Source of the DNA: a virus
Lineage: Duplodnaviria; Caudoviricetes
Direction: 5' to 3' (one strand)
Length of the DNA stretch: 64,000 nucleotides
Virus record (IMG/VR): IMGVR_UViG_2772190746_000001
Location: 2,256-66,255 of that record
The notes beneath the pieces are model-generated. The model saw nothing but the letters and a program-made list of their open reading frames with translations, was not told the origin of the DNA and made no database searches. Shown in pieces: positions 1,558 through 60,604 of the stretch. The position numbers and the translations under genes were made by a program. Positions within the stretch are counted from its first letter, which is position 1; each line of letters starts with the position of its first letter.

Positions 1558-3749
1558 GCGCGCCCGCCCGCCGGATGCTCGTCAAGGACCGGCCCGCCAG
1601 TTACCGGTCGCTCGAAGAACTGATCGCCGCCGCCACTGAAGCGGTCGCGCCGCCGGAGCGCATCACCGTTACCGAGGCGGCGAAAAAGTACGTCCGGATC
1701 AAGGAGAAGAATTACTCCGGCCTCTGGTCCGAGGACAAAACGCCGTATCTCGTCGAGCCGCAGAACGTGCTCACCAGCCTGGCCTACCAGGGGATGGTAT
1801 TTGTCGGCCCGGCGCGTACCGGCAAGTCGCAGATGTGGCTGAACTGGATGTCGCATTCGGCGATCTGCGACCCGGCAGACATGATGCTGGTCCAGATGTC
1901 GCAGGGCCGTGCGCGCGAGTTCTCCCAGTCGGATTTGCGCAAGCACTTCCGCAATTCTGCCGATGTCCGAGCAAAGCTGGTGCCCGGTCGTGTCAACGAC
2001 AACGTCTTCGACAAGACCTTCATCTCCGGCATGCGCGTCACGATCGTCCATCCGTCGATCAACGAATTCTCCGGTAAGACGGTCGGTCGCAACTGGGCGA
2101 TGGACTACGACCGCCTGCCGCTCAGCATCGACGGCGAAGGCGACGCCTGGACGCTGCTGTCGAAACGCGGCGAGACGCTGGGCCGATACGCCATGACCGT
2201 GGTGGAGTCGTCACCGGGCTTCGACGTCAACGATGCCCGGTGGATTCCTAGTTCGCCGCACGAGGCACCGCCGTGCGAAGGTATCCTGTCCCTGTACAAC
2301 ATGGGCGACCGCCGCCGCCGCTACTGGTCGTGCCCTCATTGCGGACAGAAGTTCGAGCCGGACTTCAAGTTGTTCGATTACCCGGCGTCCGCAGATCCGC
2401 ATGACGCTGCTGAGCAGGTGGTCATGGTATGCCCGGGCAACGGATGCCGCCTTGTCCCCGATCTCAAGCACGACCTCGAGCACGACGGCCGCTGGCTTCG
2501 GGAAGGGGAGATCTGGCTCGAGGACGGCTCAGTGGTCGGGCAGCCGCGCCGGTCGGACATTGCGTCGTTCTGGCTGAAAGGCCCCTCGGCGGCATTCAAC
2601 ACGTGGCAGAAGCTGGTGCTGAACTACCTCAACGCCAAGTCCGATTTCGAGCGAACCGGCAGCGAAGAGAAATTGCGCGCCGTGACCAACACCTCGTTCG
2701 GCCTGCCTTATACGCCCAAGTCGATTGAGGCTGGGCGCCTGCCGGACGAACTGAAAAAACGCGCCCGGGCCTACAACTACCGCGGCGAGGTGCCGGAAGG
2801 TGTTCGGTTCCTAGTCACCACGGTCGACGTCCAGAAGGACAGTTTTGTCGTCCACACGTTCGGGATCGCTCCGGTCACAATGGTAGGCGGCGCCCAGTCC
2901 ATGGACGTCTACCACGTCGACATGTGGAAGATCACCAAGTCGCGCCGCATCGATGCTGACGGTCACCCGCTGAAACTGGACCCGGCGTCGTTCAAGGAAG
3001 ACTGGCACGTTCTCATCGACCAGGTCATTGAGCGTGAATACCCGCTCGGCGACGGGTCGGGGCGTTTCATGAAGGCGAAGCTGGTGGCCTGCGACTCTGG
3101 CGGCGCGGCATCCGCAGCAGCTGTTCGGCTGAACAAGGCGCTCGACGGCCCGGTGGTTTCCGTGACGTCCAACGCTTACGATTTCTGGCGCTACCTCCGT
3201 CTGCATGATCCAGAGCAGCGGAACTACCACATGAAGTTCCATCTGCTGAAGGGTGAGCCCAGTCGGCAGGACAACATGATCCGCGTCGATTACCCCGATT
3301 CGCAGCAGAAGGACAAATGGGCGATCGCTCGCGGCGACGTGCCGGTCTGGAAGATCAATTCCAACGTCGCCAAGGACCAAGTCTCGAACATGCTCGGGCG
3401 CACTGAGCCGGGCGGCCAGTTTCACTTCCCGGAATGGTTCGACGTCGAGACCGGTGAACTGGAAAACATCGACTGGCTCTACACGCAGCTGACGGCTGAA
3501 ATCCGACTGCAGTCCGGCTGGGAGAACCGCAGCCGCCGCCGCAATGAAGCATTCGACTTGGCTGCGTACTGCGTCGCATTCCTGCGGATGAAAGACATCA
3601 AGATTGATCGTCTCGACTGGTCGCAGCCGCCGTCGTGGGCGGCCGAGTGGGACGTCAACGATCATGTGTTCGATGCGCAGGGTGCCCGGGGCACCAAGCC
3701 TGCTTCGGAGAGCACTTCGCTTGAGCAGCTGGGTAGCTTGCTGGGTTGA
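1554..3749 (+). CDS. terL: terminase large subunit, lambda GpA family
   Basis: Walker A GPARTGKS, MDYDR Walker B, ESSPG motif, CPHCG zinc site, TVDVQ nuclease motif. Confidence 0.95.
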   Translation: MSAPARRMLVKDRPASYRSLEELIAAATEAVAPPERITVTEAAKKYVRIKEKNYSGLWSEDKTPYLVEPQNVLTSLAYQGMVFVGPARTGKSQMWLNWMSHSAICDPADMMLVQMSQGRAREFSQSDLRKHFRNSADVRAKLVPGRVNDNVFDKTFISGMRVTIVHPSINEFSGKTVGRNWAMDYDRLPLSIDGEGDAWTLLSKRGETLGRYAMTVVESSPGFDVNDARWIPSSPHEAPPCEGILSLYNMGDRRRRYWSCPHCGQKFEPDFKLFDYPASADPHDAAEQVVMVCPGNGCRLVPDLKHDLEHDGRWLREGEIWLEDGSVVGQPRRSDIASFWLKGPSAAFNTWQKLVLNYLNAKSDFERTGSEEKLRAVTNTSFGLPYTPKSIEAGRLPDELKKRARAYNYRGEVPEGVRFLVTTVDVQKDSFVVHTFGIAPVTMVGGAQSMDVYHVDMWKITKSRRIDADGHPLKLDPASFKEDWHVLIDQVIEREYPLGDGSGRFMKAKLVACDSGGAASAAAVRLNKALDGPVVSVTSNAYDFWRYLRLHDPEQRNYHMKFHLLKGEPSRQDNMIRVDYPDSQQKDKWAIARGDVPVWKINSNVAKDQVSNMLGRTEPGGQFHFPEWFDVETGELENIDWLYTQLTAEIRLQSGWENRSRRRNEAFDLAAYCVAFLRMKDIKIDRLDWSQPPSWAAEWDVNDHVFDAQGARGTKPASESTSLEQLGSLLG

Positions 3750-3798
3750 TTGACACCATAACATTGTCGCATCAACTAGTGCGTGATAATTCGCGTTC

Positions 3799-4026
3799 AT
3801 GCCGACGCTTGCTGAACGACTTGTAGAAGCTGAGACCGCTTATCACTCGTTGATGACCGGCACGCTCGCCCGCGTCTACGTTGATCAGAACGGCGAGCGT
3901 GTCGAATACGTCGCAGCGAACGCGAGCAAGCTGCAGGGTTACATTCGTGACCTGAAGCAGCAGATCGCTGACCAGGCGACCGGTTGTCAGACCTACAATG
4001 GCCCCCTCAGGCCGTTCTTCCTGTGA
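3799..4026 (+). CDS. head-tail joining protein, gpW-like
   Basis: 75 aa between terL and portal; AYHSLMTG...VEY..AN...L..YI pattern. Confidence 0.85.
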   Translation: MPTLAERLVEAETAYHSLMTGTLARVYVDQNGERVEYVAANASKLQGYIRDLKQQIADQATGCQTYNGPLRPFFL

Positions 4027-5738
4027 GCGACGAGTTCACCGATCTGCTGGCCCGAGAGGTCGCAGCGCCGCCTGCCAAGGCTCTGGTCCCTGCCGTGGCA
4101 GGCGGCGAAGTGGCTCTCGGTGCCTTCGAAGGCGCTGACCGCTTCAACAGCACCATCGCGCTGTGGGACTCGCCGCTGAAGTCGGCTGACCTGGAAATCT
4201 TGCCCGAGAAGACGACGGTTGATGGTCGCGCCCGTGACATGCTGCGCAATGACGCATTCGTCCAAGGCGGTGCCAATCTCCACAAGGACAACATCGTCGG
4301 CAGTCACTACCTGCTGAACTGCCGCCCGGCGACCCGGGTGCTGCTCGGCAAGGACGACGACCTCTGGGAAGAAGAGTTCCAGGAAGAAGTCGAGGCCAAG
4401 TGGGAACTCTACTCGGACTCTCCTGAGAACTGGATCGACGCCGCCCGGACGAATAATTTCACGTCGCTGGTCCGCATGGCAGTCGGCATCCATCTGATGG
4501 GCGGCGAAGTGCTAGCCGCTGCCGAATGGACCACGGACGACGGCTCGCCTTACAGCACCGCGATCCAGATGGTCGACCTCGACCGCCTGTCCGATCCGAA
4601 GGACATGACTGGCTGGCGCTGGATTCAGTCGCCCGACCAGCGCGCCGGTGTGCGGTACAATCGCCGCGGTGCGCCGGTGTCGTACTTCGTCCGATCGGCC
4701 CATCCGAACGATTACGGACCGGTCGATTTCGCGCCTCCCAAATGGGACGAGATCGACCGCACCAAGCCGTGGGGCCGCCTGCAGATGATCCACCTGTTCG
4801 AGCAGGTGCGTCCGGAGCAGACACGCGGCATCACCGAGATGGCTGCAGCCCTCAAGGCGATGAAGATCACGCACACGTGGCGCGACATCACCGTGCAGCA
4901 CGCCGTCACCCAGGCGATGTATGCTGCGGCGATCACGTCCGAACTGCCAACTGCCGACATCCTCCAACGCATGGGCGGCGATTCCCCGGAAGCCGCGCAG
5001 GCAGCCATTGCGGCGTATGCGCAGGGCTACATGGGTGCCGTGGGGCAGTACGTCGGGAAGGGCGGTATCGCCATCGACGGCGTCAAGGTGCCGCGCCTGT
5101 TCCCCGGCGAGAAGTTCGAACTGAAGTCGGCAGCCGGTAACGGTCCGCTGGGCAGCCAGTTTGAGCAGTCTCTGCTGCGCTACATGGCTGCAGCAATCGG
5201 CGTGTCCTACGAGCAGCTGAGCCGCGACTACACCAACACGAACTACTCGTCTGCCCGCGCCTCCATGGCCGAGACCTGGAAGTTCATGCAGGCGCGCAAG
5301 AAGCTGATCGCCGATCGCTTCGCCACGATCATCTTCCGCCTCTGGCTGGAGGAAGCGATCAACGCAGGCGACATCGAGTCCGCCAAGCGCTTCCGGATCT
5401 ACAATCCCCCGCGCCCGGGCCAGCGCTACGGCCGTCTGAACAGCAACTTCGACGCACTGTCGCGGTGTGACTGGGTTGGCGCATCGCGCGGCCAGATCGA
5501 CGAACTCAAGGAAACGCAGGCCGCGGTGCTCCGCATCAACAATGGCCTGTCGACCGCCGAGGACGAACTGGCCCGTCTCGGGAAGGACTGGCGCAAGGTT
5601 TACCGCCAACTCAAGCGCGAAATGGCGCTGCGCGAGGCGCTGGGGCTCCAGTTCATGGCGACCGATCCCGCGACGATGGCTGCGATGAACGCGCTGTCGG
5701 CGACGCCCAGCGACGAAGGAGACAGCCCCCGTGGATAA
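4023..5738 (+). CDS. portal protein, lambda family
   Basis: RARDMLRND, YEQLSRDY..NYSSARASM, IDELKE motifs; GTGA overlap with gpW. Confidence 0.95.
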   Translation: MSDEFTDLLAREVAAPPAKALVPAVAGGEVALGAFEGADRFNSTIALWDSPLKSADLEILPEKTTVDGRARDMLRNDAFVQGGANLHKDNIVGSHYLLNCRPATRVLLGKDDDLWEEEFQEEVEAKWELYSDSPENWIDAARTNNFTSLVRMAVGIHLMGGEVLAAAEWTTDDGSPYSTAIQMVDLDRLSDPKDMTGWRWIQSPDQRAGVRYNRRGAPVSYFVRSAHPNDYGPVDFAPPKWDEIDRTKPWGRLQMIHLFEQVRPEQTRGITEMAAALKAMKITHTWRDITVQHAVTQAMYAAAITSELPTADILQRMGGDSPEAAQAAIAAYAQGYMGAVGQYVGKGGIAIDGVKVPRLFPGEKFELKSAAGNGPLGSQFEQSLLRYMAAAIGVSYEQLSRDYTNTNYSSARASMAETWKFMQARKKLIADRFATIIFRLWLEEAINAGDIESAKRFRIYNPPRPGQRYGRLNSNFDALSRCDWVGASRGQIDELKETQAAVLRINNGLSTAEDELARLGKDWRKVYRQLKREMALREALGLQFMATDPATMAAMNALSATPSDEGDSPRG

Positions 5739-9143: not shown

Positions 9144-9150
9144 CACGGCA

Positions 9151-34967: not shown

Positions 34968-34979
34968 GCTGACTCCGAA

Positions 34980-35462: not shown

Positions 35463-35489
35463 AGAATCACCTTTTAGTTGATGCCGTGC

Positions 35490-37200: not shown

Positions 37201-37201
37201 C

Positions 37202-47398: not shown

Positions 47399-49923
47399 GT
47401 TGCTGCGCCGATGCCGATCTCTTTCGCCAGGCCACCTTCACGTTCGAAAGCCCGCTGCTGACCGTACTTGCCGAAGCGGGGGCGACGGGTGCTTTCCTTC
47501 CAGCCCGGAACCATACGCATGGAGCGACCGAGCGCCGCCGGCCACATCCCGGTATATTGGGCTTCTTCGCGACCCAGGCACTCGCACCAGATTTGCAGCA
47601 GACACGTCTCGTTTCGGTAGACCGGCTGGCCGTGCTCATCGAGATCGTCTTCGATGTTGCCGTTCACGATCGGCTTGCTCAGCCATTCTTCAATGCGACC
47701 GGCCATCGCGTCCTCGGTGCTTTCCACGCGCCGCGATTCTTGCAGTCTCTCGGCAGTCTCGCGAGCCTCGGCGTCAGCAAGGTACAGGGGCAGGGTGCCC
47801 TTCGGCTGCTCGGACCGCATCTTACGGTAGATATGCAGGGCCTCGGCCCAGAGCTGGTCGATGTTATCGGTCAACCGCTCCGTGTCGATCTCAGCTTCAA
47901 GGTCGCACCTAACAGGCAGAAAGCGGCGACCACCGGTGGAGTCCTTCAGGTAGACGTCGTCATTGGTCGATCCGATCAAGATGGCCTGACGATGGTACTC
48001 CTGCGCGCGCTTGGCGTAAGCTAGGCGAACCTTGTCGCTGCGGCGGCTGATGAACGCCTTCACATGGCGGACGTCGGCCTTGGTGAAGCCGCCCAACTCG
48101 TTCAATTCCACGATCCAGGCGCCCTGCAGCGTTTCTACGACCGCTTTCGTGTCGGTGACGTCGCAATCCAGTTCGGCGAACCAGTCCTTGGCGAGAACCG
48201 AGATGAAGGTCGACTTGCGCTTGCCCTGCATGCCTTCGAGGATGACGGCAGTGTCGAACTTGCAGCCGGGCTCAAAGACGCGCGCGACTGCGGCGACCAT
48301 CATGATCCGAGCGACGGTGCGATGGTAAATGTCATCGGGCGCGCCGAGGTAGTCCACGAACAACGTCTCGACCCGCTTCTGGCGATCCCATTTCAGGTTC
48401 GAAAGGTACTCGCGGACGGGGTGGAAGCAATTCTTCCGACCGACGATGTCGATAGCCGCACGAAGGTCGCGATCCGGCACCTTGATGCCGTAGCCTCCCT
48501 GCGTTTTCGGGGCCTCAATGACCGCGCGAATCGCGTTGTCCTTATCCTCGGTCCACCAGTCGCCGTTGACCTTGTCGCGCATCACCCATGAGGCACCTTC
48601 AAGCTGAAGCGTCGGCTTGGCGGCGTTGGCACGGGAGCGCTTGCTGCCCGGCTTGCCACGCTGCACGATTTCTTGGGTGAATTCGTTGAACGCAGCCACC
48701 CCGCGGGTGCGAGCGTCGTTTTCGACAATCAGCCGGAGGTTGTGGAGGTTCGCCGTGACCTTGCCGTCTTCGTTAATCGCGAAAAGCGACGTCCATGACA
48801 GTTTGGTTTCTTCTTCGCTCAGCGATCCACCGTCCCAGTCGTCGTTATTCGCGGCCGCTGGAGCAGGGGTGCCGACGAGATCGTCAAAACCCTCGCCATC
48901 GTCCGCTGCCACCGTGTCGGCACCGAGATCATCGTCCAGATCATCGAATTCGTCAGCGAGCGACCGGGCGCGAGCGTCCTGTGCCCACTGTCGCACAGTG
49001 CCCATGGTGACCGGCTGCCGCCGATTGCGACCGAAACCACGCCACCGGCGAAGGTTCGCACGGCGGAAGTCCTTGTCGACCTTCAATGAGCGTCCGGAAT
49101 ACTTGGCCCACAGGTCGAAACCTTCATCCGAGCCACCGAACTGATGGTGCAGCGCCTGGCCGATCATGATCCACTGGTCGCGATCGTCCCAGTAGCTGAC
49201 GGGCAGCACTTCGAGGTCACCTTCCAACTGCCCGGGCTTGAAGTCCAGGGGCTCACGGGCCTCGAAGGCATAGGTGGCAGTCTCGGCAGCGCCGAGCGAT
49301 TCGACGACATCGGCGGAAATTGTCGGACCGCAACCAAACGCTAGCGCATCAAGATCGAACTCACGTTCCCAGCGATATGGCATCCGCGAATCGGGGTGGA
49401 TCGAAGGCGGCATCGCAACCTGACGACTGGTGCCGAACAGGTCGATTTCCCAATCGTAGGACCAGACTTCCTTCTGACGCTGCGTGTCGAAGCGGCGATG
49501 TTTCCCCTCGGAAACGGCCAGTTTCTTGCCGAAGAACGGGCGGTCGGCGATGAAGTAGAGGTGTCGCGACTCGCCGCCCGAACCCGAGATGACGCTGGGG
49601 AGTTCGACCGGGTCGATCCCCGGGAACAGCTTCCCAAACGCTTCCCACGCTTCGTCCGCCAGATCCGGAATGCGGATGTCCAGATCGATGACGTAGAGGT
49701 AGCCGCCTTCGACAGCAGACGGTTCGCCCAGGCGCACGCCAAGGTTTGCTCCCCGGAAATGCGAGCGACGCAGCGTTTCGGCGTCGGCCACCGGGGCGTC
49801 CTGCCACTCGTCACCACCGGCGGGAGCCTTCGAACGGGCCTTCAGCCAATGCAGCGCAAAGCCGGCGTCAACCAGCGGCCCGATCGCCGCGAGAGTATTG
49901 GTATCGTGATCAGACGAAGTCAT
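47395..49923 (-). CDS. primase-polymerase/PriCT-2/VapE helicase
   Basis: NLGVR.G...IDLD prim-pol; W..IG.ALH PriCT; LEG.QG.RKST, ELNEL, STN VapE motifs. Confidence 0.92.
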   Translation of the reverse strand: MTSSDHDTNTLAAIGPLVDAGFALHWLKARSKAPAGGDEWQDAPVADAETLRRSHFRGANLGVRLGEPSAVEGGYLYVIDLDIRIPDLADEAWEAFGKLFPGIDPVELPSVISGSGGESRHLYFIADRPFFGKKLAVSEGKHRRFDTQRQKEVWSYDWEIDLFGTSRQVAMPPSIHPDSRMPYRWEREFDLDALAFGCGPTISADVVESLGAAETATYAFEAREPLDFKPGQLEGDLEVLPVSYWDDRDQWIMIGQALHHQFGGSDEGFDLWAKYSGRSLKVDKDFRRANLRRWRGFGRNRRQPVTMGTVRQWAQDARARSLADEFDDLDDDLGADTVAADDGEGFDDLVGTPAPAAANNDDWDGGSLSEEETKLSWTSLFAINEDGKVTANLHNLRLIVENDARTRGVAAFNEFTQEIVQRGKPGSKRSRANAAKPTLQLEGASWVMRDKVNGDWWTEDKDNAIRAVIEAPKTQGGYGIKVPDRDLRAAIDIVGRKNCFHPVREYLSNLKWDRQKRVETLFVDYLGAPDDIYHRTVARIMMVAAVARVFEPGCKFDTAVILEGMQGKRKSTFISVLAKDWFAELDCDVTDTKAVVETLQGAWIVELNELGGFTKADVRHVKAFISRRSDKVRLAYAKRAQEYHRQAILIGSTNDDVYLKDSTGGRRFLPVRCDLEAEIDTERLTDNIDQLWAEALHIYRKMRSEQPKGTLPLYLADAEARETAERLQESRRVESTEDAMAGRIEEWLSKPIVNGNIEDDLDEHGQPVYRNETCLLQIWCECLGREEAQYTGMWPAALGRSMRMVPGWKESTRRPRFGKYGQQRAFEREGGLAKEIGIGAAT

Positions 49924-50267: not shown

Positions 50268-50440
50268 GTCGGGGGAACTCCGGTCTATTTGCGGCGACCT
50301 TATGACTGGCGACCCTGAAAATCAACTGTACGTGGTCACAATCACTAAAAGGTTGAAACTGTCATGAGGCTGTGGCTATATCACTGCGACTCGGCGGCAC
50401 GGTCGCCGGGACGAACTTCAGCGAAGAAGGACCACCCCAA

Positions 50441-50998
50441 ATGAGCACCCCTGCTGCCGCGCCGCTGACCATCGACGCGCTCTTTTCCTCCATCATCGCG
50501 CTGACTGCGGCGCTGAACCGTACCGCCGATAACCAGGAGCGCCTGATTGCCGGTCAGCAGGCCGCAATCGAGAAGATCGAAGGCGCGAAGACCACCACGA
50601 CCCGCGCTCGCAAGCCCAAGGACGATGCTCCGGCGGCGACCACCACCGCGACCGAAAAGGCCCCCGAAGTCGAAGCGGTGAAGTCGTTCCTGCCCGACAT
50701 CAAGACCGGTGACGGTGACGCGCTCAAGGCCCATATCCAGCCATGGCTCGGCGCCGTGGCGAAGGGCACCCCGGAAGCTGCCGAGCGTGTCGGTTTCCTC
50801 AAGGCGATCGCCGAGCACTTCGGTGTCGAGGCGAAGTTCGGCCCGCTCGCGGAAGGTGATGACCGCCTGAAGCAGACCCTGTTCTACTTCGAACGCAAGA
50901 AGGCCGGTAAGCCGGTCGACTTCAAGGTCGATTACGACTTCGACGGCGATCCCGAGCAGGAAGCCGAGGCACCGGCTGGCGACGACGACTTCGGCTGA
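50441..50998 (+). CDS. hypothetical replication-region protein with DDDFG tail
   Basis: AAGGA SD; first gene of the rightward operon. Confidence 0.7.
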   Translation: MSTPAAAPLTIDALFSSIIALTAALNRTADNQERLIAGQQAAIEKIEGAKTTTTRARKPKDDAPAATTTATEKAPEVEAVKSFLPDIKTGDGDALKAHIQPWLGAVAKGTPEAAERVGFLKAIAEHFGVEAKFGPLAEGDDRLKQTLFYFERKKAGKPVDFKVDYDFDGDPEQEAEAPAGDDDFG

Positions 50999-51110: not shown

Positions 51111-52298
51111 GTGATCCCTGACGACATCCCGGCACACTCGGAACACGGGCCATCGTCGGCAGAGGGGTGGTTTAACTGCGCTGACTACATCAATGCCAAC
51201 CGCGGACTCCCGGACGACCAGTCATGGGAAGCCGCCGAAGGAACGTTCGCGCACATCATCTCGGACGAATGTCTGTCGGACGGCACTGACGCAGATAGTT
51301 ACATCGGTCGCACGGAAACCGTAGGTCGTTGGGACTTCACCTGGACCGAAGACGACGCAATGCTCTTGCAGCACGGCATCGACTGGCTGCGATCGAACCC
51401 CGGCTCGTTCTACAGCGAGCAGCGCGTTGAGATCACGCAATGGGTAGGTCTGGACAGCCACGGGAGGCGCCAGTTTGGCACGCTCGACCGGGCTGTGATC
51501 ACCGACGAGTTCTGCATCATCTCTGACCTGAAGTGGGGAAGGGGAGTTCCGGTCCGGCCGGAGCGCAACAAGCAGTTGATGCTGTACGCGCTGGCATTCT
51601 ACGAGGCGTACAAGCCGGAAATTCGAGACTTTGTCATCCACATTGATCAGCCCCGCCACATGGGCGGCGGCGGTCGCTGGGAATGCACACTCGACGATCT
51701 CCTAGCCTTCGGCGAAGAAGTCCGCCGCGCAGCAGACGCGACCCGGCAGCCCAACCCGCCGCGAACGGCAACCGAGAAGGGTTGCATGTGGTGTCGCCGG
51801 AAGAATGCGCCCGGCGGCTGTGGCACCTTGGATGAGTACGTGCTGCGCCTGCTGCAAATGGAGTTCGACGACTTGGATGCGCCCGCATTGACCCTGCCGA
51901 CCGGCTTGACGCCCGAGCGCCGCCGCACGCTGTTCGACCACCGCAAGATGATCGAGACCTGGCTGGAGCGGAACGACGCCGAACTGTTCGAGCGTGGCTT
52001 GGCGGGTGATCCGACCGGCGGCCTGAAGATCATTGAAGGTCGCAAGGACGCCGACCGCTGGGAAGATGAAAAGGGTGCGGCTCAGATTGCCGTGACTGGC
52101 GTTTTGCGTGAGAATTGTTTCACTCAAAAGTTGATTTCACCAACTCAGGTGAGTAAGAGAGTCCATCCGGACAGCTTCGATTGGCTTCTCATCGAACCGC
52201 ACATCAAGCGCGGCAAGAGGAAGCTGACGTTGGTGCCCGAGGAAGACGACCGGCCGGCAGTCACCTCTGCCGCCGAGTTCGAGGATCTGGATGACTGA
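51111..52298 (+). CDS. DUF2800 PD-(D/E)xK (Cas4-like) exonuclease
   Basis: HS..GPSSAE.W..C, EGT.AH, GTLD, DLKWGRG, QLMLYAL, C.WC. Confidence 0.9.
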   Translation: MIPDDIPAHSEHGPSSAEGWFNCADYINANRGLPDDQSWEAAEGTFAHIISDECLSDGTDADSYIGRTETVGRWDFTWTEDDAMLLQHGIDWLRSNPGSFYSEQRVEITQWVGLDSHGRRQFGTLDRAVITDEFCIISDLKWGRGVPVRPERNKQLMLYALAFYEAYKPEIRDFVIHIDQPRHMGGGGRWECTLDDLLAFGEEVRRAADATRQPNPPRTATEKGCMWCRRKNAPGGCGTLDEYVLRLLQMEFDDLDAPALTLPTGLTPERRRTLFDHRKMIETWLERNDAELFERGLAGDPTGGLKIIEGRKDADRWEDEKGAAQIAVTGVLRENCFTQKLISPTQVSKRVHPDSFDWLLIEPHIKRGKRKLTLVPEEDDRPAVTSAAEFEDLDD

Positions 52299-52335: not shown

Positions 52336-53055
52336 ATGAGCACCGAGGAAAAGAAGGACGACGGCCGCACAGTCATGCTGAAAGGCGTGCCGATCTCGTT
52401 CACGGATTCCCTGAAAGACGCCAAGCCGACCGTGAAGGATGGGGTGCCCAAGCATGGGTGTAACATCCTCATCGTCGCCGGTTCGCCCAACGAGGCTGCG
52501 AACAAGGCAAAGATCATGTCTGCAATGCGGGCTGCGTGCCGCATGGAGTTCGGCGACGAGCGGGAAGACTTCTTCAAGGTCATCTCCGAGGACGATCCGA
52601 AGCGCGTCGCATACCGGAAGGGTGAGCGCTTCAAGAACAGCGAGACCCAGGAAGTCTACAAGGGTTACGCAGGCAACATGGTCGTCGCAGGCTACGGCCC
52701 CGGCGGCAGCAAGAACCCCCGTCGCCCGAAGCTGTTCAACCGCCGCCGCAAGCAGCTCGACGAGATCAACCCGGCGACCGAAAAGCCATTCTTCACGCTC
52801 AACGATGTCCCGGAAATCTTCTACTCCGGCTGTCTGAGCGACGTAAAGGTGTCGTTCTACGCGACCTCGCACAAGGACCAGGGCGGCAACGGCCTGTTCT
52901 GCACCATCGAAGCGATCCGCAGCCACGAAGAAGGTGAGCGCATGGCCGGCGGCTCCGTCCAGACCAGCGCCGACGAATTCGACGACCTGGACGATGACGA
53001 CGACATCGGCGGTGCTTCGACCACCACGGCAGCAGCCGACGACGACTTCGGCTGA
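52336..53055 (+). CDS. DUF2815 ssDNA-binding protein
   Basis: OB-fold-like, FYSGC..DV.V.FY, acidic C-tail. Confidence 0.82.
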   Translation: MSTEEKKDDGRTVMLKGVPISFTDSLKDAKPTVKDGVPKHGCNILIVAGSPNEAANKAKIMSAMRAACRMEFGDEREDFFKVISEDDPKRVAYRKGERFKNSETQEVYKGYAGNMVVAGYGPGGSKNPRRPKLFNRRRKQLDEINPATEKPFFTLNDVPEIFYSGCLSDVKVSFYATSHKDQGGNGLFCTIEAIRSHEEGERMAGGSVQTSADEFDDLDDDDDIGGASTTTAAADDDFG

Positions 53056-53113: not shown

Positions 53114-53518
53114 TTGTTGCGCAAAGTGTGTCCGATCTGCCAGTTGCGGAAGCCGCTTGAGGCGTTTCATCGCCAAGCTAGCGGTAAGTTCGGGCGTCAT
53201 TCGTACTGCGCTACCTGCGCTTGTGCGAAACAGCGGGCTTCGCGCACGAGAAACTATTCGGCTGAGCAAAAACGACGTTGGCAGCTGCGCACGCGATACA
53301 ATTTGAGCCCTGCCCAAGTCGCCGAGATGACCGAGCGTCAGGGAAACAAGTGTAAGATTTGCCGGGTCGAGCTGACCAAGTTCCATATCGACCACTGCCA
53401 CAAGACCAACAAAGTCCGCGGACTGCTCTGTCATCGGTGCAATATTCGGCTTGCCGCCCTGGATGACGCTGAGTGGCACGCGAGCGCCCTGCAGTATCTC
53501 AAGGATGCTGCGGCATGA
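53114..53518 (+). CDS. endonuclease VII-type HNH nuclease
   Basis: RYNL...Q..C.IC...HIDHCH.T.KVRGLLC..CN. Confidence 0.85.
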   Translation: MLRKVCPICQLRKPLEAFHRQASGKFGRHSYCATCACAKQRASRTRNYSAEQKRRWQLRTRYNLSPAQVAEMTERQGNKCKICRVELTKFHIDHCHKTNKVRGLLCHRCNIRLAALDDAEWHASALQYLKDAAA

Positions 53519-55266
53519 TCCGCTTCGGTTCGGTGTGCAGCGGAATAGAGGCTGCCAGCGTAGCGTGGCATCCGCTGGGATGGCGCGCGGCATGGTTCGC
53601 GGAGGTCGATCGTGCCGCCAGCGAAGTGCTCGCCCACCGTTTTCCGGATGTGCCCAACTACGGCGACATGACCCTGCTGGCGGGGATGGTGCGTCGCCGT
53701 GAAATAGAGGCACCCGATGTACTGGTCGGCGGAACTCCGTGCCAAAGTTTCAGTGTCGCAGGCTTGCGTGGAGGTCTTCAGGATGCCCGCGGCCAGCTCA
53801 CCATCGCATTCATTGATCTCGCCAACGCAATCGATGAAATCCGCATCCCAGATCGCATGCCTCCGGTCATCGTGGTTTGGGAAAATGTTCCGGGAATCCT
53901 GACACATGCAGACAATCCACTCGGCTGCTTTCTTGCCGGGCTTGCCGGCGATGACGAAGCTCTTGAGCCTGGCCCACGACCTGACGACGGACGGTCCGCT
54001 GCCTACTGGACATGGGATAAAAAAGCCCGTCACCACCGTGCGAAGTGGCCGAACTCAGGTGCTGCTTGTGGACCCCAGAGGGCAGTCGCGTGGCGCATCC
54101 TCAATGCCGAATTCTTCGGACTGGCCCAACGACGCCGTCGTGTGTTCGCTGTCGCAAGTGCTCGTCCGGGATTCGATCCCACAGGGGTACTTCTTGAGTT
54201 CGAAGGCGTGCGCCGGGATACTGCGCCGCGCCGAGAAGCGGGGGAAGGACTTACCCATCCCGTTGCTCCTTGCCTTACGAGCAGTGGCAGGGGAGTCGAG
54301 CGAACCGGAGACACCCGCGGTCAAGACGCCGTCGTCGCTGTCATCGACGACGGCGGGCGAGTTCGAGGCGCTGCTGGGGTAGGCTTCGCCATCCCAACAT
54401 GGTGGGATGGGCGAGATGTGTCCCAGACGCTCGACGCTGTGCTGCACAAGGGGCAGACCATGCCCGAGAAGAACCGCTTCCCGGCGGTTCTGCAGCCGAT
54501 CGCGTTCAGCACCAAGGATTACGGCGGTGACGCAGCGTCGGAGAAAGATCCGACGCTGCGTTCGATGGGGCACTCAGGTTCGCACGCGAACGGCGGCGGG
54601 CAGATCGGCGTCGCCTATGCTTTCCAACCTCGCATTGCGCGCAACGGCCGCGGGGACATGGGGGATTGCGTCAACGCGCTGACCGCGCAGGCTGGTGAAA
54701 CGGGCAAGGGCGACGCAGCGCCCTGCGTCGCCTACGAAGTTACGCCGTTCGACACGACCCAGATCACCAGCCCCGGCAACTACAGCAACCCGCAGCCGGG
54801 TGACCCGTGCCACCCGCTCGCCGCCGGCGCTCATCCCCCGGCAGTGTGCGTCACGGGGACCGTGACGCACACTCTCAAGGCCGAAGGCTTCGACGCTTCG
54901 GAGGACGGCACCGGGCGCGGGCAACCGATTGTCGTTCACGGAACACAAGACCCTTGCGTCGGAGAGATCGCCTTCGCGCTCGGTCGCAACAATGGCGGGG
55001 AGAATGTCATTCTCCCCGCCACCAGAATGGCCGTCCGTCGCCTGATGCCGGTTGAGTGTGAACGCCTGCAGGGATTCCCGGACGGATGGACTGACGTGCC
55101 CGCTGGCAAGTCGCGCAAACCTGCCGCTGACGGTCCTCGCTACAAGCAGCTCGGGAACTCGATGGCGACGAACGTGATGGCCTGGATCGGCCGCCGCATC
55201 GCCGCGCAGCTTGGCAGCAACGGCGGCCCGCCGCTCGACGACGAATTCGAGGCGCTGCTGGGATGA
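53515..55266 (+). CDS. C5 cytosine DNA methyltransferase (main polypeptide)
   Basis: CSGIEAA (motif I), GGTPCQSFS (IV), WENVPG (VI), QRRRRVF (VIII), RRL.P.ECERLQGFP...GNS (X). Confidence 0.93.
   Translation: MIRFGSVCSGIEAASVAWHPLGWRAAWFAEVDRAASEVLAHRFPDVPNYGDMTLLAGMVRRREIEAPDVLVGGTPCQSFSVAGLRGGLQDARGQLTIAFIDLANAIDEIRIPDRMPPVIVVWENVPGILTHADNPLGCFLAGLAGDDEALEPGPRPDDGRSAAYWTWDKKARHHRAKWPNSGAACGPQRAVAWRILNAEFFGLAQRRRRVFAVASARPGFDPTGVLLEFEGVRRDTAPRREAGEGLTHPVAPCLTSSGRGVERTGDTRGQDAVVAVIDDGGRVRGAAGVGFAIPTWWDGRDVSQTLDAVLHKGQTMPEKNRFPAVLQPIAFSTKDYGGDAASEKDPTLRSMGHSGSHANGGGQIGVAYAFQPRIARNGRGDMGDCVNALTAQAGETGKGDAAPCVAYEVTPFDTTQITSPGNYSNPQPGDPCHPLAAGAHPPAVCVTGTVTHTLKAEGFDASEDGTGRGQPIVVHGTQDPCVGEIAFALGRNNGGENVILPATRMAVRRLMPVECERLQGFPDGWTDVPAGKSRKPAADGPRYKQLGNSMATNVMAWIGRRIAAQLGSNGGPPLDDEFEALLG
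53906..54382 (+). CDS. overlapping-frame methyltransferase beta-like polypeptide (start uncertain: 53906, 53951 or 54104)
   Basis: CSLSQVL...YFLS..ACAGILRRAEKRGK resembles motif IX/EcoHK31I beta; ends EFEALLG. Confidence 0.65.
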   Translation: MQTIHSAAFLPGLPAMTKLLSLAHDLTTDGPLPTGHGIKKPVTTVRSGRTQVLLVDPRGQSRGASSMPNSSDWPNDAVVCSLSQVLVRDSIPQGYFLSSKACAGILRRAEKRGKDLPIPLLLALRAVAGESSEPETPAVKTPSSLSSTTAGEFEALLG

Positions 55267-57332
55267 GCTTCTTCGATCCCGCCCGCACACTGATCGTCGA
55301 CACCGAATGCGTGGCGAACTTCTGGTCGATCGGTTTCCGCCGAGTCAGCGACGCCAAGACGCTCATCATCGAGCATTCCGAGCGGCGTCCGATGACCGAG
55401 GCGCAGCAACTGCGCATCCGTAATCTGATCATGAACAACACTATCGTGACGTACAACGGCATCGGGTACGACATGATCATGATCTTCCTGGCGGCGGCCG
55501 GGGCGTCGAACGCCGAACTCAAGGCGGCAAACGACAAGATCATCGTCGGCGGCATGAAATACTGGCACGCCCGCGACCTGCTGGGCGTCGAGGTTCCGCG
55601 CGACTGCTTCCTACGGAAAGACGGCAGCCAGACCGAAGGGCTTCACCACTTCGACCTGATGGAGCCGCAGCCCAACGCTCGTGCGTCGCTCAAGACGCTG
55701 CAGGGACGCTTGCACGGCCGGAAGATGCAGGAAGTCGAGTGGGTGGACCGTCCGTTCACCTACGAGGAAATGGACCAGACGCTCGCCTACATGGGGAACG
55801 ACCTCGAGGCGACGCACAACGTCTTCGACGCACTGATCGAGCCGCTGGCGCTCCGGGACACGTTCAGCCGGGAATACGGCATCAACCTGATGTCGAAATC
55901 CGACGCCCAGATGGGCGAGGCGATCATCAAGCGGCGCGTCGAGCAGGAGACCGGTGAAAAGGTCTTCAAGGTCGAGACGCCACCGGGCACCACGTTCAAG
56001 TTCAAGGCGCCGGAGTACCTTCAGTTTGAGCCTGGCAGCGAGCTGTCGGCCATCTTCGAGCGGGTCAAGCAGACCGACTTCATGGTCCTGCCGAATGGCA
56101 AGGTCGAACTGCCGGAGTGGCTGTCGGATCGCACCATCGACATCGGCGTGTCCAAGTATCAGATGGGCATCGGCGGCCTTCACTCGACCGAGAAGAACCG
56201 CTCCGTCCACGCGGACGACGAGTTCGCCTTGGTCGACTTCGACGTGGCGTCCTACTATCCTCGTATCATCATCAATTCGGGTCTGTACCCGAAGGCCCTC
56301 GGTCCTGCATTCCTCAAAGTTTTCAGCGCAATCGCCGATGAACGCCTGGGCGCAAAACAGCGTATCAAGGCGATCGACGAGGAGCTGAAGTCCAGCACCA
56401 GTCTCACGGCTCCCGCGCTGAATGCCGAGCGCGCCCGCGTCAGGGCGGTCGAAGCCGGACTGAAGATTGCACTGAACGGCACGTTCGGGAAGTTGGGCAG
56501 CCCATACTCGGTGCTCTACGCACCTCATCTGCTGATCACCACGACGCTGACCGGCCAGTTCGCCCTGCTGATGCTGATCCAGCGCGCAGAGGCGATGGGC
56601 ATCTCAATCGTCTCGGCGAACACGGACGGTGTCGTCATGCGGATTCCACGCAGCATGATCGGTCCTATCAAGCGCGACCGGGTCACCGAAGGTGCGGTCA
56701 AGAATCTCATCGAGCAGTGGGAGGTCGACACCGGCTTCGTCATGGAAGCCACGCCGTACCGGTCGATCTTCAACCGTTCGGTCAACGACTACATCGCCAT
56801 CAAGGAAGACGGTGCGGTCAAGTGGAAGGGTGTCGTCGCAAACCCTTGGCGCTCGGGGGATGGGTTCAAGCCGGACCTGCGCGGCCAGCTGATGAAGAAC
56901 CCCCAGATGCCGATCATCGCGAATGCCGTGGTCGACCACATCACCAAGGGGACGCCGCTCGAAGAGACGATCCGTAGCGGCACCGACGTGCGCGACTTCA
57001 TCACCGTGGTGAACGTGCAGGGCGGGGGCACCTGGCGCGGGGAATTTTTGGGAAAGGTCGTCCGTTATTACTGGGCGCACGGCGGCGAGGAGATCCTGCG
57101 TGCCAAGCCGCATGAGCGGACCGGCAACTTCGCGAAGGTCTCCAAGACGGATGGCTGCCGGCCGTTGATGGAACTCACCGGCGAGTTCCCGCCGGACGTC
57201 GATTACGAGACGTACATCCAGGCTGCCCGTGAAGTCCTGATGGATATCGGGTTCAACGAGCGCCCGCCAGCAGTAAAGCCGCTGCGGGTCTACAAATACA
57301 ACGCGATCGGTTGGTTCGCGGTCGCGGCATGA
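55263..57332 (+). CDS. family B-type DNA polymerase with 3'-5' exonuclease
   Basis: VDTEC, YNG..YD exonuclease; DFDVASYYP (A), K.ALNGTFGK (B), NTDG (C). Confidence 0.9.
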   Translation: MSFFDPARTLIVDTECVANFWSIGFRRVSDAKTLIIEHSERRPMTEAQQLRIRNLIMNNTIVTYNGIGYDMIMIFLAAAGASNAELKAANDKIIVGGMKYWHARDLLGVEVPRDCFLRKDGSQTEGLHHFDLMEPQPNARASLKTLQGRLHGRKMQEVEWVDRPFTYEEMDQTLAYMGNDLEATHNVFDALIEPLALRDTFSREYGINLMSKSDAQMGEAIIKRRVEQETGEKVFKVETPPGTTFKFKAPEYLQFEPGSELSAIFERVKQTDFMVLPNGKVELPEWLSDRTIDIGVSKYQMGIGGLHSTEKNRSVHADDEFALVDFDVASYYPRIIINSGLYPKALGPAFLKVFSAIADERLGAKQRIKAIDEELKSSTSLTAPALNAERARVRAVEAGLKIALNGTFGKLGSPYSVLYAPHLLITTTLTGQFALLMLIQRAEAMGISIVSANTDGVVMRIPRSMIGPIKRDRVTEGAVKNLIEQWEVDTGFVMEATPYRSIFNRSVNDYIAIKEDGAVKWKGVVANPWRSGDGFKPDLRGQLMKNPQMPIIANAVVDHITKGTPLEETIRSGTDVRDFITVVNVQGGGTWRGEFLGKVVRYYWAHGGEEILRAKPHERTGNFAKVSKTDGCRPLMELTGEFPPDVDYETYIQAAREVLMDIGFNERPPAVKPLRVYKYNAIGWFAVAA

Positions 57333-57377: not shown

Positions 57378-57689
57378 ATGCTAACTTACGCCGAAGCGCA
57401 GTTCTGCGGTATTCATAAAGCACCGTATTCAGCGTTTACGCATGGGCACGACTTCTGGGTGCGCGTCACTTGGAAGGATGCCGGTGATTTCCGGCTATGG
57501 CGCGATACTCTTGATGATGAGATCGCTGGCTTGGACCACGCGGATTTGAACGAACTCCTCGGCGACAAAGCAACGAACGAAGGTGTTGCCGCGTACCTCG
57601 GGGCCATTCTCGGAGCGGTTACGGTTGAGGTTTGGCGTTTCGACCGCGGTCGCCGTTTTGGCGCGATCTGGCAGAGAGACGGTCAGTGA
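57378..57689 (+). CDS. QueD/PTPS-like T-fold protein
   Basis: H..HGH.F.VRV, DF, LDH..LNE, TNE..A. Confidence 0.7.
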   Translation: MLTYAEAQFCGIHKAPYSAFTHGHDFWVRVTWKDAGDFRLWRDTLDDEIAGLDHADLNELLGDKATNEGVAAYLGAILGAVTVEVWRFDRGRRFGAIWQRDGQ

Positions 57690-57940
57690 ACATTTACGTC
57701 CACCGTTTCACTTCGAAATGCCCAAGCAATGGCGCGCTGATTTCTTACAAGCTGGAAATTCGATCAAACGACGTGATCATGGTCGAAGAAATCATCACGG
57801 CCTGTGCTGTCGAAAGCACATATCACGAGTCCCTGGCAGATATTCTTTATGCGCGCTTCGGCGGGCAACAGTCGATGATCGCATTCCACCACGGCGTCTG
57901 CATTCAGACCTTTCGTCCGAGCCACACCGATTTCCAATGA
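57686..57940 (+). CDS. QueF/QueF-L-like small T-fold protein
   Basis: FTSKCP, MVE, YHE, HHGVCI align to QueF FTSLCP, MVE, FHE, RGGISI. Confidence 0.6.
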   Translation: MNIYVHRFTSKCPSNGALISYKLEIRSNDVIMVEEIITACAVESTYHESLADILYARFGGQQSMIAFHHGVCIQTFRPSHTDFQ

Positions 57941-58671
57941 TCCATTTCCACGGCGGCCCGATCACCCCTGACCCGTGCGCAATCAAAGCATGGAAGGGCC
58001 GGCATGCCTTCATCAGTTACGCGCACTCGAGTCAGATCGGGCTCGCCGCCGAGATCTGTCAAACGTTTGCGCTCGACAATGGGGCGTTTTCATTTTGGAA
58101 AGCTAAAAAGGCTGTCGACTGGCCCGGCTATTATCGCTGGGTCTCGAACTGGCGACGCCATCCAGGATTCGATTTCGCGGTTGTCCCGGACGTTATCGAA
58201 GGCAGCGAGGCGGATAATGATCTGCTCGCCAACGAGTGGCCTTTCGAGCGTCACGAAGCCGCTGTCGTATGGCACATCAACGAATCCGTCGATCGGCTTA
58301 TTCGTCTCGCCAACGAGTGGCCGAGAGTCGCGATTGGTTCTAGCGGCGAGTTCGACGTGTCACGTCCTCGCGCGTTTCTTGCCCGCATGAGGGCGGTGCT
58401 GCCGACCATCATAGACGCCGATGGTTACCCAATATGCAAGTTGCATGGCTTGCGAATGCTAAATCCCGCGCTTTTCTCACTGCTGCCGTTGGCGTCAGCT
58501 GACAGCACCAATGTGGCCCGTAATATCGGCATTGATAGCGCGTGGCGCGGCACATATCAGCCGCAAAGTAAGGAAACCCGTGCAGCGGTCCTAGTTGAGC
58601 GGATCGAGGCGATGAATTCGATCGGCGCATTGCCCGATCTAGTCGAAGACTTCGAACGGCTGCTCGGATGA
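57937..58671 (+). CDS. TGT/DpdA-like transglycosylase
   Basis: LDNGAFS, PDVI, VWH, IGSSG, KLHGLR, SADST motifs in TGT-barrel order. Confidence 0.65.
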   Translation: MIHFHGGPITPDPCAIKAWKGRHAFISYAHSSQIGLAAEICQTFALDNGAFSFWKAKKAVDWPGYYRWVSNWRRHPGFDFAVVPDVIEGSEADNDLLANEWPFERHEAAVVWHINESVDRLIRLANEWPRVAIGSSGEFDVSRPRAFLARMRAVLPTIIDADGYPICKLHGLRMLNPALFSLLPLASADSTNVARNIGIDSAWRGTYQPQSKETRAAVLVERIEAMNSIGALPDLVEDFERLLG

Positions 58672-60194
58672 CCTACCTCCCTCCGCGCGACGCATTCTAC
58701 GCCAGCATTGCCGCAGGCACCTGGCCGGATATCAGCCCGTTCACCCCGGTCCCGCTTAACCCGGGATTGTTCGACCCGGGCCTGCACTGGTGGCAGTTCG
58801 ATCTGCTCGAACAGGTCGCCGCGTTGATGCGGGCCGGGTATCGCCGCGTCCTGCTACAATGCCCGACCGGCGGCGGTAAAACCGTCATGGCGTTGAGTGC
58901 GCTGCTGTCCGCCCGGCGGCAGGATCTGCTGGCGATGTTCCTCGTGCATCGCAAGGAGCTGCTGAAGCAGACCGGGCAACGGTTCACCAGTGCGGCGCTC
59001 GACCATAGTTTCGTCGCAGCCGGGTTCCCGTATGACCCGGCTGCCGGGCTGTTGCTCGGCGGCGTCCAGACGCTGGTGAAGCGGCTCGATAGCATGCTGC
59101 CGCCGGTACTGGTCATCGTCGACGAGTGCCACCATGCCGTCTCCAACACCTACGCCGAGATCCTGGAACGCTGGCCCGATGCGTTCATCCTTGGCCTGAC
59201 AGCTACCCCGGAACGCCTCGATGGCAGGGGGCTCAACGAGCACTTCGACGTGATGGTGCTTGGCCCGCCGCCGCGGTGGCTGATCGATAACGGCTACCTG
59301 TCCGACTACGACTATTACGCGCCGGAGATTCCGGACTTCGCGGGGATCGATCCCGACCGCAATCGGGAAGCTGCGGCCAATGTGCTGCGTGAGCCGCGGC
59401 TGATTGGCAGCGTGGTCGACCATTATCTGCAACTGGGTCGCGGCGAGCAGGGCATCGTGTTCGCCCAGAACCGGGCACACAGTCGCGACCTCGAAGCCGC
59501 GTTTCTGGACCGCGGCATCCGGGCGATGCACGTGGACGGCGACACCCCGCAGGACCGCCGGGACTATTTCGACGACGCCTTCCGCGATGGCTACATTCGC
59601 ATCGGTCTCAACGTTGGACTCTTCGGGGAAGGATATGACGTCCCCGGGATCAGTTACCTCGGAATCGACGCGGCCACCAAGTCGCTGGTGAACTTCCTCC
59701 AGTGGTGCGGTCGTGTGTTGCGGTTCGTCCCGGGCAAGCGGGCGGTGATCTGTGATCATGCCGGCAACGCGCTACCGCCGCTGCTCGGCGGCCGGGGGTT
59801 GGGGCTGCCGGACGACGATCGTGACTGGTCGATGCTGGGTAGGGGTGCCGGGAAGCCGGTGACCGAGAAGGACTGGACCACCATCACGCAGTGCATGGAG
59901 TGCTTCAGGATTTACCCATCCGCCGCGCCCTGCTGCCCAGGCTGTGCCGCGAACCGACCCGCGCAGCCGCGCATGACCCGGCAGCAGGAGGGGCAACTGC
60001 GGAAGCTGGAGCGCGAAATGCTGCAGCAACAGTTGATCCAGCGCCGGAAGCAAGAAGAAGCCGAAGTCCGCACCTTCGACGAAATGGTCTCTCTGGCGCT
60101 TGCACGCGGACACAAGAAGCCGGTCGGGTGGGCGCGTATTCAATGCCGTCTTCGTCGCATTCCGATCGTAAGTAAAAAGGGCTACCTCCGATGA
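58668..60194 (+). CDS. superfamily II helicase with C-terminal zinc ribbon
   Basis: PTGGGKT, DECHH, LTATP, EGYD.P, Q..GR.LR. Confidence 0.93.
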   Translation: MTYLPPRDAFYASIAAGTWPDISPFTPVPLNPGLFDPGLHWWQFDLLEQVAALMRAGYRRVLLQCPTGGGKTVMALSALLSARRQDLLAMFLVHRKELLKQTGQRFTSAALDHSFVAAGFPYDPAAGLLLGGVQTLVKRLDSMLPPVLVIVDECHHAVSNTYAEILERWPDAFILGLTATPERLDGRGLNEHFDVMVLGPPPRWLIDNGYLSDYDYYAPEIPDFAGIDPDRNREAAANVLREPRLIGSVVDHYLQLGRGEQGIVFAQNRAHSRDLEAAFLDRGIRAMHVDGDTPQDRRDYFDDAFRDGYIRIGLNVGLFGEGYDVPGISYLGIDAATKSLVNFLQWCGRVLRFVPGKRAVICDHAGNALPPLLGGRGLGLPDDDRDWSMLGRGAGKPVTEKDWTTITQCMECFRIYPSAAPCCPGCAANRPAQPRMTRQQEGQLRKLEREMLQQQLIQRRKQEEAEVRTFDEMVSLALARGHKKPVGWARIQCRLRRIPIVSKKGYLR

Positions 60195-60604
60195 GTGAAT
60201 TCGATGATCTTCTCGGAAAAGGGCGTAGCGAACACGCTATTTTAAATGATGCACTGATCGGCATCACAGCGCTCAAAGACACTTTTGCTTATCGCCAGAA
60301 CACGGGTCAGGCGTGGCAAGGACGATCTGTAGATGTCTCTCCGGGAGAATACATAAAAGTCTTGCCGGGCATGAAAATCCTAGAGGCTGCGCGGCCAATT
60401 GACTTCGGCTTGGAAGGTGCCGGGGATATCGTCGGGCATCGGCGAGGGCGTGCTTTTCAGGTGGAGACGAAGACTTTAACCGGGCGCCAAAGACAAATGC
60501 AAAAGAACTTCGAACGCATTTGGGTTCAGAGAGGTGGAATCTACATTTTGGCCCGCGACCCAGACGAGGCGGTTGAGAAGATAAGAGTGATTAACTCAAA
60601 TTGA
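60191..60604 (+). CDS. VRR-NUC nuclease
   Basis: G.EG.GDI...VETKT..GRQR..QK.F. Confidence 0.85.
   Translation: MSEFDDLLGKGRSEHAILNDALIGITALKDTFAYRQNTGQAWQGRSVDVSPGEYIKVLPGMKILEAARPIDFGLEGAGDIVGHRRGRAFQVETKTLTGRQRQMQKNFERIWVQRGGIYILARDPDEAVEKIRVINSN

Follow-up and report, generated by a model that had tools for sequence, protein, structure and literature searches.

Why should so many unrelated proteins of a single phage carry the same few residues at their ends? The question is raised by a 64,000-nucleotide stretch of viral DNA (positions 2,256 to 66,255 of the IMG/VR record IMGVR_UViG_2772190746_000001; the whole stretch is called the window here), in which a peptide of the form D/E-F-x-x-L-L-G, hereafter the tag, recurs on methylases, nucleases and packaging proteins. 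About fifteen unrelated DNA-handling proteins carry this same short acidic peptide on a flexible end. The window corresponds to the minus strand of contig C1 (1526168-1590167) in a 6.9 Mb genome of five replicons, and the prophage to which it belongs has a size of ~67 kb. Judged by its sequence, the prophage belongs with the Casjensviridae-like temperate phages and has a sphingomonad host, the tmRNA tag of the host (ANDNEALALAA) being a sphingomonad match. Its head module is lambda-like, with a DUF1441 small terminase (TerS), a gpA-type large terminase (TerL), gpW, a gpB-type portal and an S49 protease. Its replication module is T7-like or Chi-like and comprises a primase-polymerase/VapE protein, a DUF2800 Cas4-like nuclease, a DUF2815 protein that binds single-stranded DNA (SSB), a family-A-like polymerase, an SNF2-type helicase and a VRR-NUC nuclease.

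Occurrence and form of the tag

A preliminary description of the window had listed copies of the tag on a series of gene products and had proposed that they form a phage-wide signal on DNA-modifying, repair and packaging enzymes. That distribution, which extends to recombination proteins, is borne out by our results, and all of the listed copies were found in place, including the non-C-terminal ones at the N-terminus of the VRR-NUC nuclease, in a linker of the primase and at the N-terminus of the portal, with the single revision that the ending of TerL is reread as a family helix. The N-terminus of TerS, the integrase and the excisionase carry further copies that had been absent from that list (Table 1).

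A six-frame scan of the window gave 16 matches to F-x-x-L-[LV]-G, with a stop codon directly after 8 of them; by our own rough estimate, which assumes a chance of ~0.05 of a stop per match, the probability of such a result is ~1e-7. Across the six frames of the whole 6.9 Mb genome, the pattern F-x-x-L-[LVI]-G-stop was matched 11 times, and the nine matches that terminate open reading frames (ORFs) of at least 60 residues all lie inside the prophage, the integrase and the excisionase being among them. None of the ~6,400 host proteins (rough GC3-based gene calls) ends in the motif, and the 12 host matches are all internal to proteins, and the prophage proteins exceed those of the host 67-fold in motif density. 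The recurrence of the tag is therefore genuine, and chance is excluded as its source. The codons for Leu, Gly and the acidic residues vary among the copies, which supports the earlier proposal that selection acts on the peptide rather than on a DNA repeat, and synonymous codons likewise vary among the tags of two metagenomic relatives, L042 and L043.

The tag is an extension beyond the conserved domains of its carriers. In the MT-A70 adenine methylase, the Pfam domain stops at residue 198 of 220 and the tags lie beyond it; since tags are placed beyond the Pfam domain ends of the MT-A70 and NADAR proteins and beyond motif X of the C5 methylase, they can be regarded as appended elements. An AlphaFold2 model of the MT-A70 protein, built on a 120-sequence alignment, gave a predicted local confidence (pLDDT) above 90 for the domain and of 64-68 for residues 201-220, with a helix at residues 207-219 that covers both tag copies. 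The model thus supports the tag being an appended, flexible short linear motif.

Among the close MT-A70 homologs with a strict ending (n = 64), the consensus opens with D and D/E/P and continues with F (36) or L/V/I/Y, a pair of variable positions that are mostly acidic or Ala, L (44), L (41) or I/F, and finally G (53) or A. Hydrophobic residues therefore stand at positions i, i+3 and i+4, and the frequent leading Asp or Asp-Pro together with the terminal Gly are in keeping with an amphipathic helix that is capped. Gly or Ala likewise closes the copies at N-termini and inside proteins, indicating that a free carboxylate is dispensable.

Dialects among related phages and a nested gene

The nearest cultured relatives, all of them Casjensviridae, are Rhodobacter phage RcPutin, Rhizobium phage RHph_X2_30 and Synechococcus virus S-ESS1, and these were compared together with 10 metagenomic relatives. 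Orthologous protein ends are tagged in the relatives too, each genome having its own form, or dialect. RcPutin and L037 use D-L-[ST]-D-L-[FL] inside proteins and E-L-L-V at C-termini, RHph_X2_30 uses F-x-D-[IV]-L-G and S-ESS1 uses E-D-L-I. L043 carries F-[ED]-D-I-L-G on five adjoining genes and L042 carries x-x-E-L-I-G on five genes, while D-L-x-D-L-L-G in L039 has the SNF2 helicase and the SSB among its carriers, and L029 has L-L-A or L-L-S. Tags agree at 4.22 of 7 positions within a genome and at 2.60 between genomes, a difference that was reached by none of 5,000 label permutations. The test used a dialect-neutral filter (two acidic and two hydrophobic residues before the last residue), and it somewhat overstates independence, as RcPutin and L037 are closely related. 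The tags of a genome thus change in concert.

The tip of the SSB is that of the 208-residue family in all four genomes in which both were found, and this tip varies between genomes; the L039 SSB has the LLG dialect at its own end. TerS orthologs in the relatives hold their own dialect at the equivalent N-terminal site, and the DpdA-like ortholog of RHph_X2_30 ends in the dialect of that phage, whose primase ortholog has an acidic C-terminal tail in place of the internal tag. The N-terminal tag of the VRR-NUC nuclease is the same in L026 and lacking in L027, and the C5 methylase ortholog of Pseudomonas phage UF_RH7 has no tag. In Enc34, a phage of the same family with an enterobacterial host, the acidic run of the SSB is tipped by Val, as read from a cloning primer (PMC5686142).

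Among the 120 closest MT-A70 homologs, 92 end in a tag variant under a loose pattern and 67 under a strict one, and by eye nearly all have some variant of the tail; at least two pattern matches at least 7 residues apart within the last 50 residues were found in 60 of them. The distant MT-A70 clusters have one tagged protein among 149 representatives, most of which stop just past a conserved W-G-N-E..K-F block. Outside this phage group the tail is therefore missing from orthologs, and inside it the tail persists in the form of dialects. Six distant homologs (P0287, P0288, P0320, P0347, P0370 and P0386) have an I-P-x-F-L-R-R peptide near the C-terminus; it is similar to the peptide conserved at the C-terminus of FtsZ and may represent a further docking motif of a portable kind.

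The tag system tracks the virus family across host phyla, the recorded hosts being alphaproteobacteria and a cyanobacterium (Synechococcus, for S-ESS1). A scan of 200 genomes of the host's family for the tag pattern found a cluster solely in the genome that holds the window (5 matches, vs 0-2 elsewhere) and no related prophages. An exact-pattern scan of IMG/VR returned nothing beyond one MuF-like family and, in low-GC contigs, antisense ORFs that are spurious. In the Mu-like head modules concerned (L007-L023), a MuF/SPP1 gp7-like minor head protein ends C-R-C-Y-A-D-P-D-F-S-D-L-L-G in many contigs, and it is the sole tagged protein of those loci.

Two head proteins required closer reading. The C-terminus of TerL, which had been described as a looser form of the tag, aligns with a C-terminal helix of gpA-type terminases that is kept in every relative and in lambda, in a region that we take to be the prohead-binding part of lambda gpA. 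The L-L-G ending of TerL is thus probably this conserved helix and not a tag. The N-terminal tag of the portal is kept in all of the related portals that were readable, each in its own dialect, with hydrophobic-x-x-L-L-(G/A) in the first 25 residues in the window, RcPutin, RHph_X2_30, L030, L039 and L032. The annotated, cleaved 22-residue leader of lambda gpB reads I-P-T-L-L-G, and so shares with the prophage portal both the N-terminal position and the hydrophobic-x-x-L-L-G pattern; the difference is that in lambda it is known solely as one protein's cleaved leader, whereas in the prophage the pattern is found on many non-structural proteins.

The dialects also bear on an ORF nested within the C5-methylase gene, which the preliminary description had called an overlapping beta frame. 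The long methylase frame holds all ten methylase motifs, and frame 2 of the gene (53906-54382) is open, as it is in the orthologs of Pseudomonas, Pectobacterium and Serratia phages. A protein search with the nested ORF gave 488 homologs, some of which have the sequence in frame with N-terminal or C-terminal methylase parts. Those in related phages end in their own tag dialects, which is good evidence that the frame is translated, and by these comparisons the nested ORF is a real and widespread gene. AlphaFold2 predicted a three-helix core at residues 82-130 (pLDDT 74-93) with disordered ends, and a fold search of this model against the PDB gave no structural match.

Among 63 aligned members of the nested-ORF family, 27 start with a canonical Q-L-x-M-F clamp motif and have no C-terminal tag, 16 are tagged without this start (13 by script, plus three dialect endings added by eye) and one has both (Fisher p = 1.4e-4). 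The clamp-motif and tagged groups are separate clades, so that a functional replacement is hinted at, not proven. The nested protein may be an adaptor that tethers the methylase. A precedent is M.EcoHK31I, in which a different frame within the alpha gene codes for the beta chain (PMC2836561). Both are cases of a C5 methylase gene with a second protein-coding frame, but the nested protein described here belongs to another family, has no motif IX and carries the tag.

Proposed docking on a phage partner and rival explanations

The explanation that we prefer, giving it about an even chance, is that the tag serves as a docking signal read by one co-evolving partner. According to this explanation, (D/E)-(D/E/P)-F-x-x-L-L-G would be a short linear docking motif that forms an acidic amphipathic helix, N-capped and glycine-capped and roughly one and a half turns long, joined by flexible linkers to the ends of proteins and rarely placed in their inner linkers. 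The clients would be proteins acting on phage DNA, namely the methylases, the DpdA base-exchange enzyme, the NADAR protein, nucleases, the primase, the integrase, the excisionase, TerS and the portal. A single partner could bind all of them via a basic surface with a hydrophobic groove, and could thereby gather them on replicating phage DNA. That the tag binds a partner, and which one, is what we infer here. Since the dialects are uniform in each genome, the partner should co-evolve with the tags and would most likely be phage-encoded, a reading also favored by the distribution along a virus family and the lack of host clients; together these make a co-evolving phage reader more likely and conserved host machines less so.

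On the model of T7, the best candidates for this partner would be the SSB, through its concave sheet, and the polymerase, and within the docking explanation we regard the SSB, the polymerase and a protein not yet recognized as roughly equal in likelihood. In crystals of Enc34 ORF6, of two other DUF2815 proteins and of T7 gp2.5, the acidic tail is lodged in a neighbor's concave sheet (PMC5686142), and T7 DNA polymerase is a receptor of such acidic tails (as cited in PMC5686142). The polymerase is the sole core replication protein that is never tagged, in 11 of 11 genomes (the prophage and 10 relatives). It has, in the prophage and in most of the ten relatives, a hydrophobic tail of the W-x-A-x-A-A or L-A-L-A-A type, like the ssrA end, which might act either in docking or as a signal for ClpXP.

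The prophage shares with T7 a replisome of similar type, a gp2.5/DUF2815-type SSB with an acidic C-terminal tail, and flexible acidic tails with a hydrophobic tip on several proteins, as in T7 gp2.5 and gp4; the tail of T7 also binds the SSB's own DNA-binding sheet (PMC5686142). T7, however, has two such proteins, compared with about fifteen in the prophage, which include recombination, modification and packaging proteins. The T7 tail has a single terminal Phe, whereas the prophage has a helix-forming F-x-x-L-L-G, its tails ending in Gly after L-L or F, and the last residue in relatives is V, I, A, L or G. N-terminal and linker copies and genome-specific dialects also set the prophage apart. 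Docking tails common to several proteins have been described for T7, T4, bacterial SSB and sliding clamps. What is new is the scale, some fifteen proteins being involved that span replication, modification, recombination and packaging, together with the F-x-x-L-L-G helix form and the uniform genome-specific dialects, and no description of a shared tail in these phages was found in the open-access literature. The tip of bacterial SSB, an acidic run followed by I-P-F, occurs in no prophage protein, both host SSBs ending in D-D-D-I-P-F; as the host's clamp clients end in QLSLL, the tag copies neither host code.

Several points weigh against docking on the SSB or the polymerase. The integrase, excisionase, TerS and portal would be odd clients for either, and the portal motif is also present in lambda, which has neither this SSB nor this polymerase. 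Spread of the tag by copying could partly explain its uniformity within a genome. Furthermore, the F-type dialect of the prophage is also that of RHph_X2_30, although this phage has the most divergent SSB and polymerase and the most similar portal, a pattern that does not favor a reader in the replication module.

Three other proteins of the window were considered as readers. The BRCT-domain protein (38313-39917) was set aside as it is not conserved in RcPutin, and the J-domain protein (19452-19991) as it is not shared with RcPutin. The GapR-like (DUF2312) nucleoid-associated protein has homologs in RcPutin, RHph_X2_30, L042, L043 and S-ESS1, the sequence of the other relatives stopping short of the region; it was rejected as a hub because its own C-terminus departs from the dialects except in RcPutin, and it is kept as a weak idea. 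The GapR-like protein carries the local tag itself in RcPutin and S-ESS1.

An alternative that we consider unlikely is that the tag binds the beta sliding clamp of the host as a non-canonical motif, tethering its clients to clamps on replicated phage DNA in the manner of PIP boxes or of T4 L-D-F-L-F. The beta-clamp motif, like the tag, is a short linear motif in the disordered ends of DNA enzymes, and the list of clients resembles that of clamps. T4 polymerase ends L-D-F-L-F-G, the same hydrophobic-x-x-L-hydrophobic-G pattern as the tag. Both this ending and a loop inside T4 ligase adopt an amphipathic helix in binding the gp45 clamp (PMC6212786), and the gp45-binding motif L-D-F-L-F(-G) sits on gp43, ligase, gp33 and gp55. 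In that phage, DNA enzymes of unrelated kinds have in common a short, acidic and amphipathic helix, either C-terminal or in a loop and with a final Gly in the polymerase, which a single hub recognizes (PMC6212786). Nevertheless, the prophage has neither a gp45-type nor a DnaN-type clamp and its polymerase is untagged. PF02916 had no match in the genome and PF02768 matched only two host loci outside the prophage, and there was no clamp family among the prophage proteins scanned. The host dnaN lies at C1:413111, and a second host DnaN-like gene is found at C1:2316967-2317332 (415-residue open frame).

The canonical pattern Q-phi-x-[LM]-[FL] is not matched by the tag either, which has no Gln and whose first hydrophobic residue is always preceded by Asp, Glu, Gly, Asn or Cys; a change of Gln to Glu in the clamp motif greatly lowers affinity (PMC11139829). 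Moreover, the spacing of the tag is hydrophobic-x-x-L-L, with A, D, E, R or Q at the position where L or M would be expected, the host's own clamp clients keep the canonical ending, and the canonical motif is at no prophage protein end. The near exclusivity of the Q-L-x-M-F start and the tag in the nested-ORF family suggests that one motif replaced the other, but it is not independent evidence, the groups being separate clades. Finally, the clamp pocket is highly conserved, so that genome-specific dialects would be unexpected.

It is improbable, in our view, that the tag is a degron or remodelling signal for ClpXP, Lon or the S49 head protease that sets a common lifetime for its carriers. A non-polar C-terminal tripeptide with a free carboxylate would be like the ssrA-like signals of ClpX, integrase and excisionase are classic unstable phage proteins, lambda Xis being the example, and the motif-bearing leader of the lambda portal is removed by cleavage. 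With their L-L-G endings, however, the tags differ from the host ssrA tag, and it is the untagged polymerase that ends in A-V-A-A. N-terminal, internal and tandem copies are at odds with a degron at the C-terminus, the tag also occurs on structural and packaging proteins, and the strictly conserved acidic residues with the upstream F would suit a groove-binding helix better; conserved host proteases would also leave the dialects unexplained.

A signal for head assembly or for the portal vertex, derived from the portal leader, also appears to be a poor prospect. Clients would here be brought to the scaffold, protease or portal, and might be packed and injected. The N-terminal leader of the portal is the most conserved copy and is present even in lambda, the MuF/gp7-like minor head protein of unrelated Mu-like modules ends in D-F-S-D-L-L-G, and the F-type dialect is common to RHph_X2_30, whose head module is the closest. 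TerS, however, acts outside the capsid, and about fifteen client types that include the primase and SSB-like tails would be unlikely cargo in a capsid with ~64 kb of DNA.

A nucleotide-level by-product of gene junctions (ATGA overlaps, ribosome binding sites or a recombination linker) with no peptide function can hardly account for the tag: although 5 of 10 window tags end in GGA-TGA, and in the operons of L042 and L043 a GGA-TGA ending creates the start codon of the next gene in 7 of 10 tags, the other copies end in GGT, GGC or GGG with TGA or TAG and no overlapping start, the copies use different codons for Leu, Glu and Asp, some of them are doubled or sit at N-termini or inside proteins, host genes use the same coupling and never with the motif, and conservation at the amino-acid level extends across hundreds of homologs. 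Coupling as the sole cause, which the preliminary description had named as a possible refutation, is thereby refuted, about half of the copies having GGA-TGA with an overlapping ATG.

If docking on one hub is the correct explanation, the peptide would reveal how a temperate phage links replication, hypermodification (DpdA and two or three methylases), anti-defense (NADAR), integration and packaging. A broader and more tentative proposal, which we hold to be possible but the weaker bet, is that Casjensviridae-like phages have a family-wide peptide address code that co-evolves with one hub reader, the dialect of a lineage deciding which imported genes could plug into its DNA factory and so limiting or channelling the exchange of modules. 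Dialect switching would then provide a model, open to testing, of how reader and ligand co-evolve and of the barriers to compatibility within mosaic phage genomes. As an annotation tool, the tag flags true protein ends and has brought the nested translated gene to light, and it predicts which unassigned proteins belong to the DNA factory. The peptide could also serve to recruit foreign proteins to phage DNA.

Organization of the locus

The coordinates of the tagged proteins and of the proteins discussed with them are collected in Table 1.

Table 1. Tagged and associated proteins of the prophage, in window coordinates
Feature	Coordinates	Strand	Family match	Tag and remarks
Integrase	-2428..-1031			C-terminal tag; just upstream of the window
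Excisionase	-1006..-788			C-terminal tag; just upstream of the window
TerS (DUF1441 type)	555..1337	+	Pfam PF07278	Tag-like D-E-F-x-x-L-V-A near N-terminus, ~600-623
TerL (gpA type)	1554..3749	+	Pfam PF05876, PF20454	Ends L-L-G
Portal (lambda gpB type)	3984..5738	+		N-terminal tag D-E-F-x-D-L-L-A, ~4029-4052
MT-A70 DNA adenine methylase	32475..33137	-	Pfam PF05063	Two tandem C-terminal tags, 32478-32519
127-residue protein	33134..33517	-		C-terminal tag; function unassigned; six-frame match
GapR-like (DUF2312) nucleoid-associated protein	33520..33777	-		
147-residue protein	36829..37272	-		Two tandem C-terminal tags; six-frame match
NADAR-domain protein	46943..47398	-	Pfam PF08719, domain ends at residue 140 of 151	C-terminal tag
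Primase-polymerase / VapE-type helicase	47395..49923	-		Internal tag 48868-48888, PriCT_2-VapE linker
208-residue protein	50372..50998	+		Ends in acidic run and F-G, tip identical to that of the SSB
Cas4-like exonuclease (DUF2800)	51111..52298	+	Pfam PF10926	Acidic E-F-E-D-L-D-type ending, kept in all relatives
T7 gp2.5-type SSB (DUF2815 / Enc34 type)	52336..53055	+	Pfam PF10991, E 2.4e-11	Asp-rich tail ending D-D-D-F-G
C5 cytosine DNA methylase	53473..55266	+	Pfam PF00145	C-terminal tag beyond motif X
Nested ORF	53906..54382	+		C-terminal tag; alternative frame of the C5 methylase gene
Family-A-like DNA polymerase	55263..57332	+	tblastn matches to phage DNA polymerases	Untagged
DpdA / queuine tRNA-ribosyltransferase-like protein	57583..58671	+	phrog_887, E 3e-75, residues 119-346	C-terminal tag
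VRR-NUC nuclease	60191..60604	+	phrog_5702, phrog_93	N-terminal tag 60200-60220

In TerS, an AT-hook-like basic stretch comes after the N-terminal tag and the C-terminal tail is acidic. The Pfam domains of the primase cover residues 18-188, 237-314 and 507-730, and its tag is at about residue 345. The 127-residue and 147-residue proteins matched no Pfam or PHROG family. The true start of the DpdA-like protein is probably downstream of 57583.

A nucleotide-metabolism and regulatory block on the minus strand (33948-38343) comprises the ribonucleotide reductase small chain, an ECF-type sigma factor, a dNMP kinase, a DnaQ-like exonuclease and thymidylate synthase, and the BRCT-domain ORF comes after it. 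The J-domain (DnaJ-like) ORF is on the minus strand, opposite to the surrounding block of tail genes. A minor tail/connector protein on the plus strand (9513-10133) and its orthologs have a conserved tag-like C-terminal helix, E-F-x-R-L-L, which is probably a structural helix and no tag.

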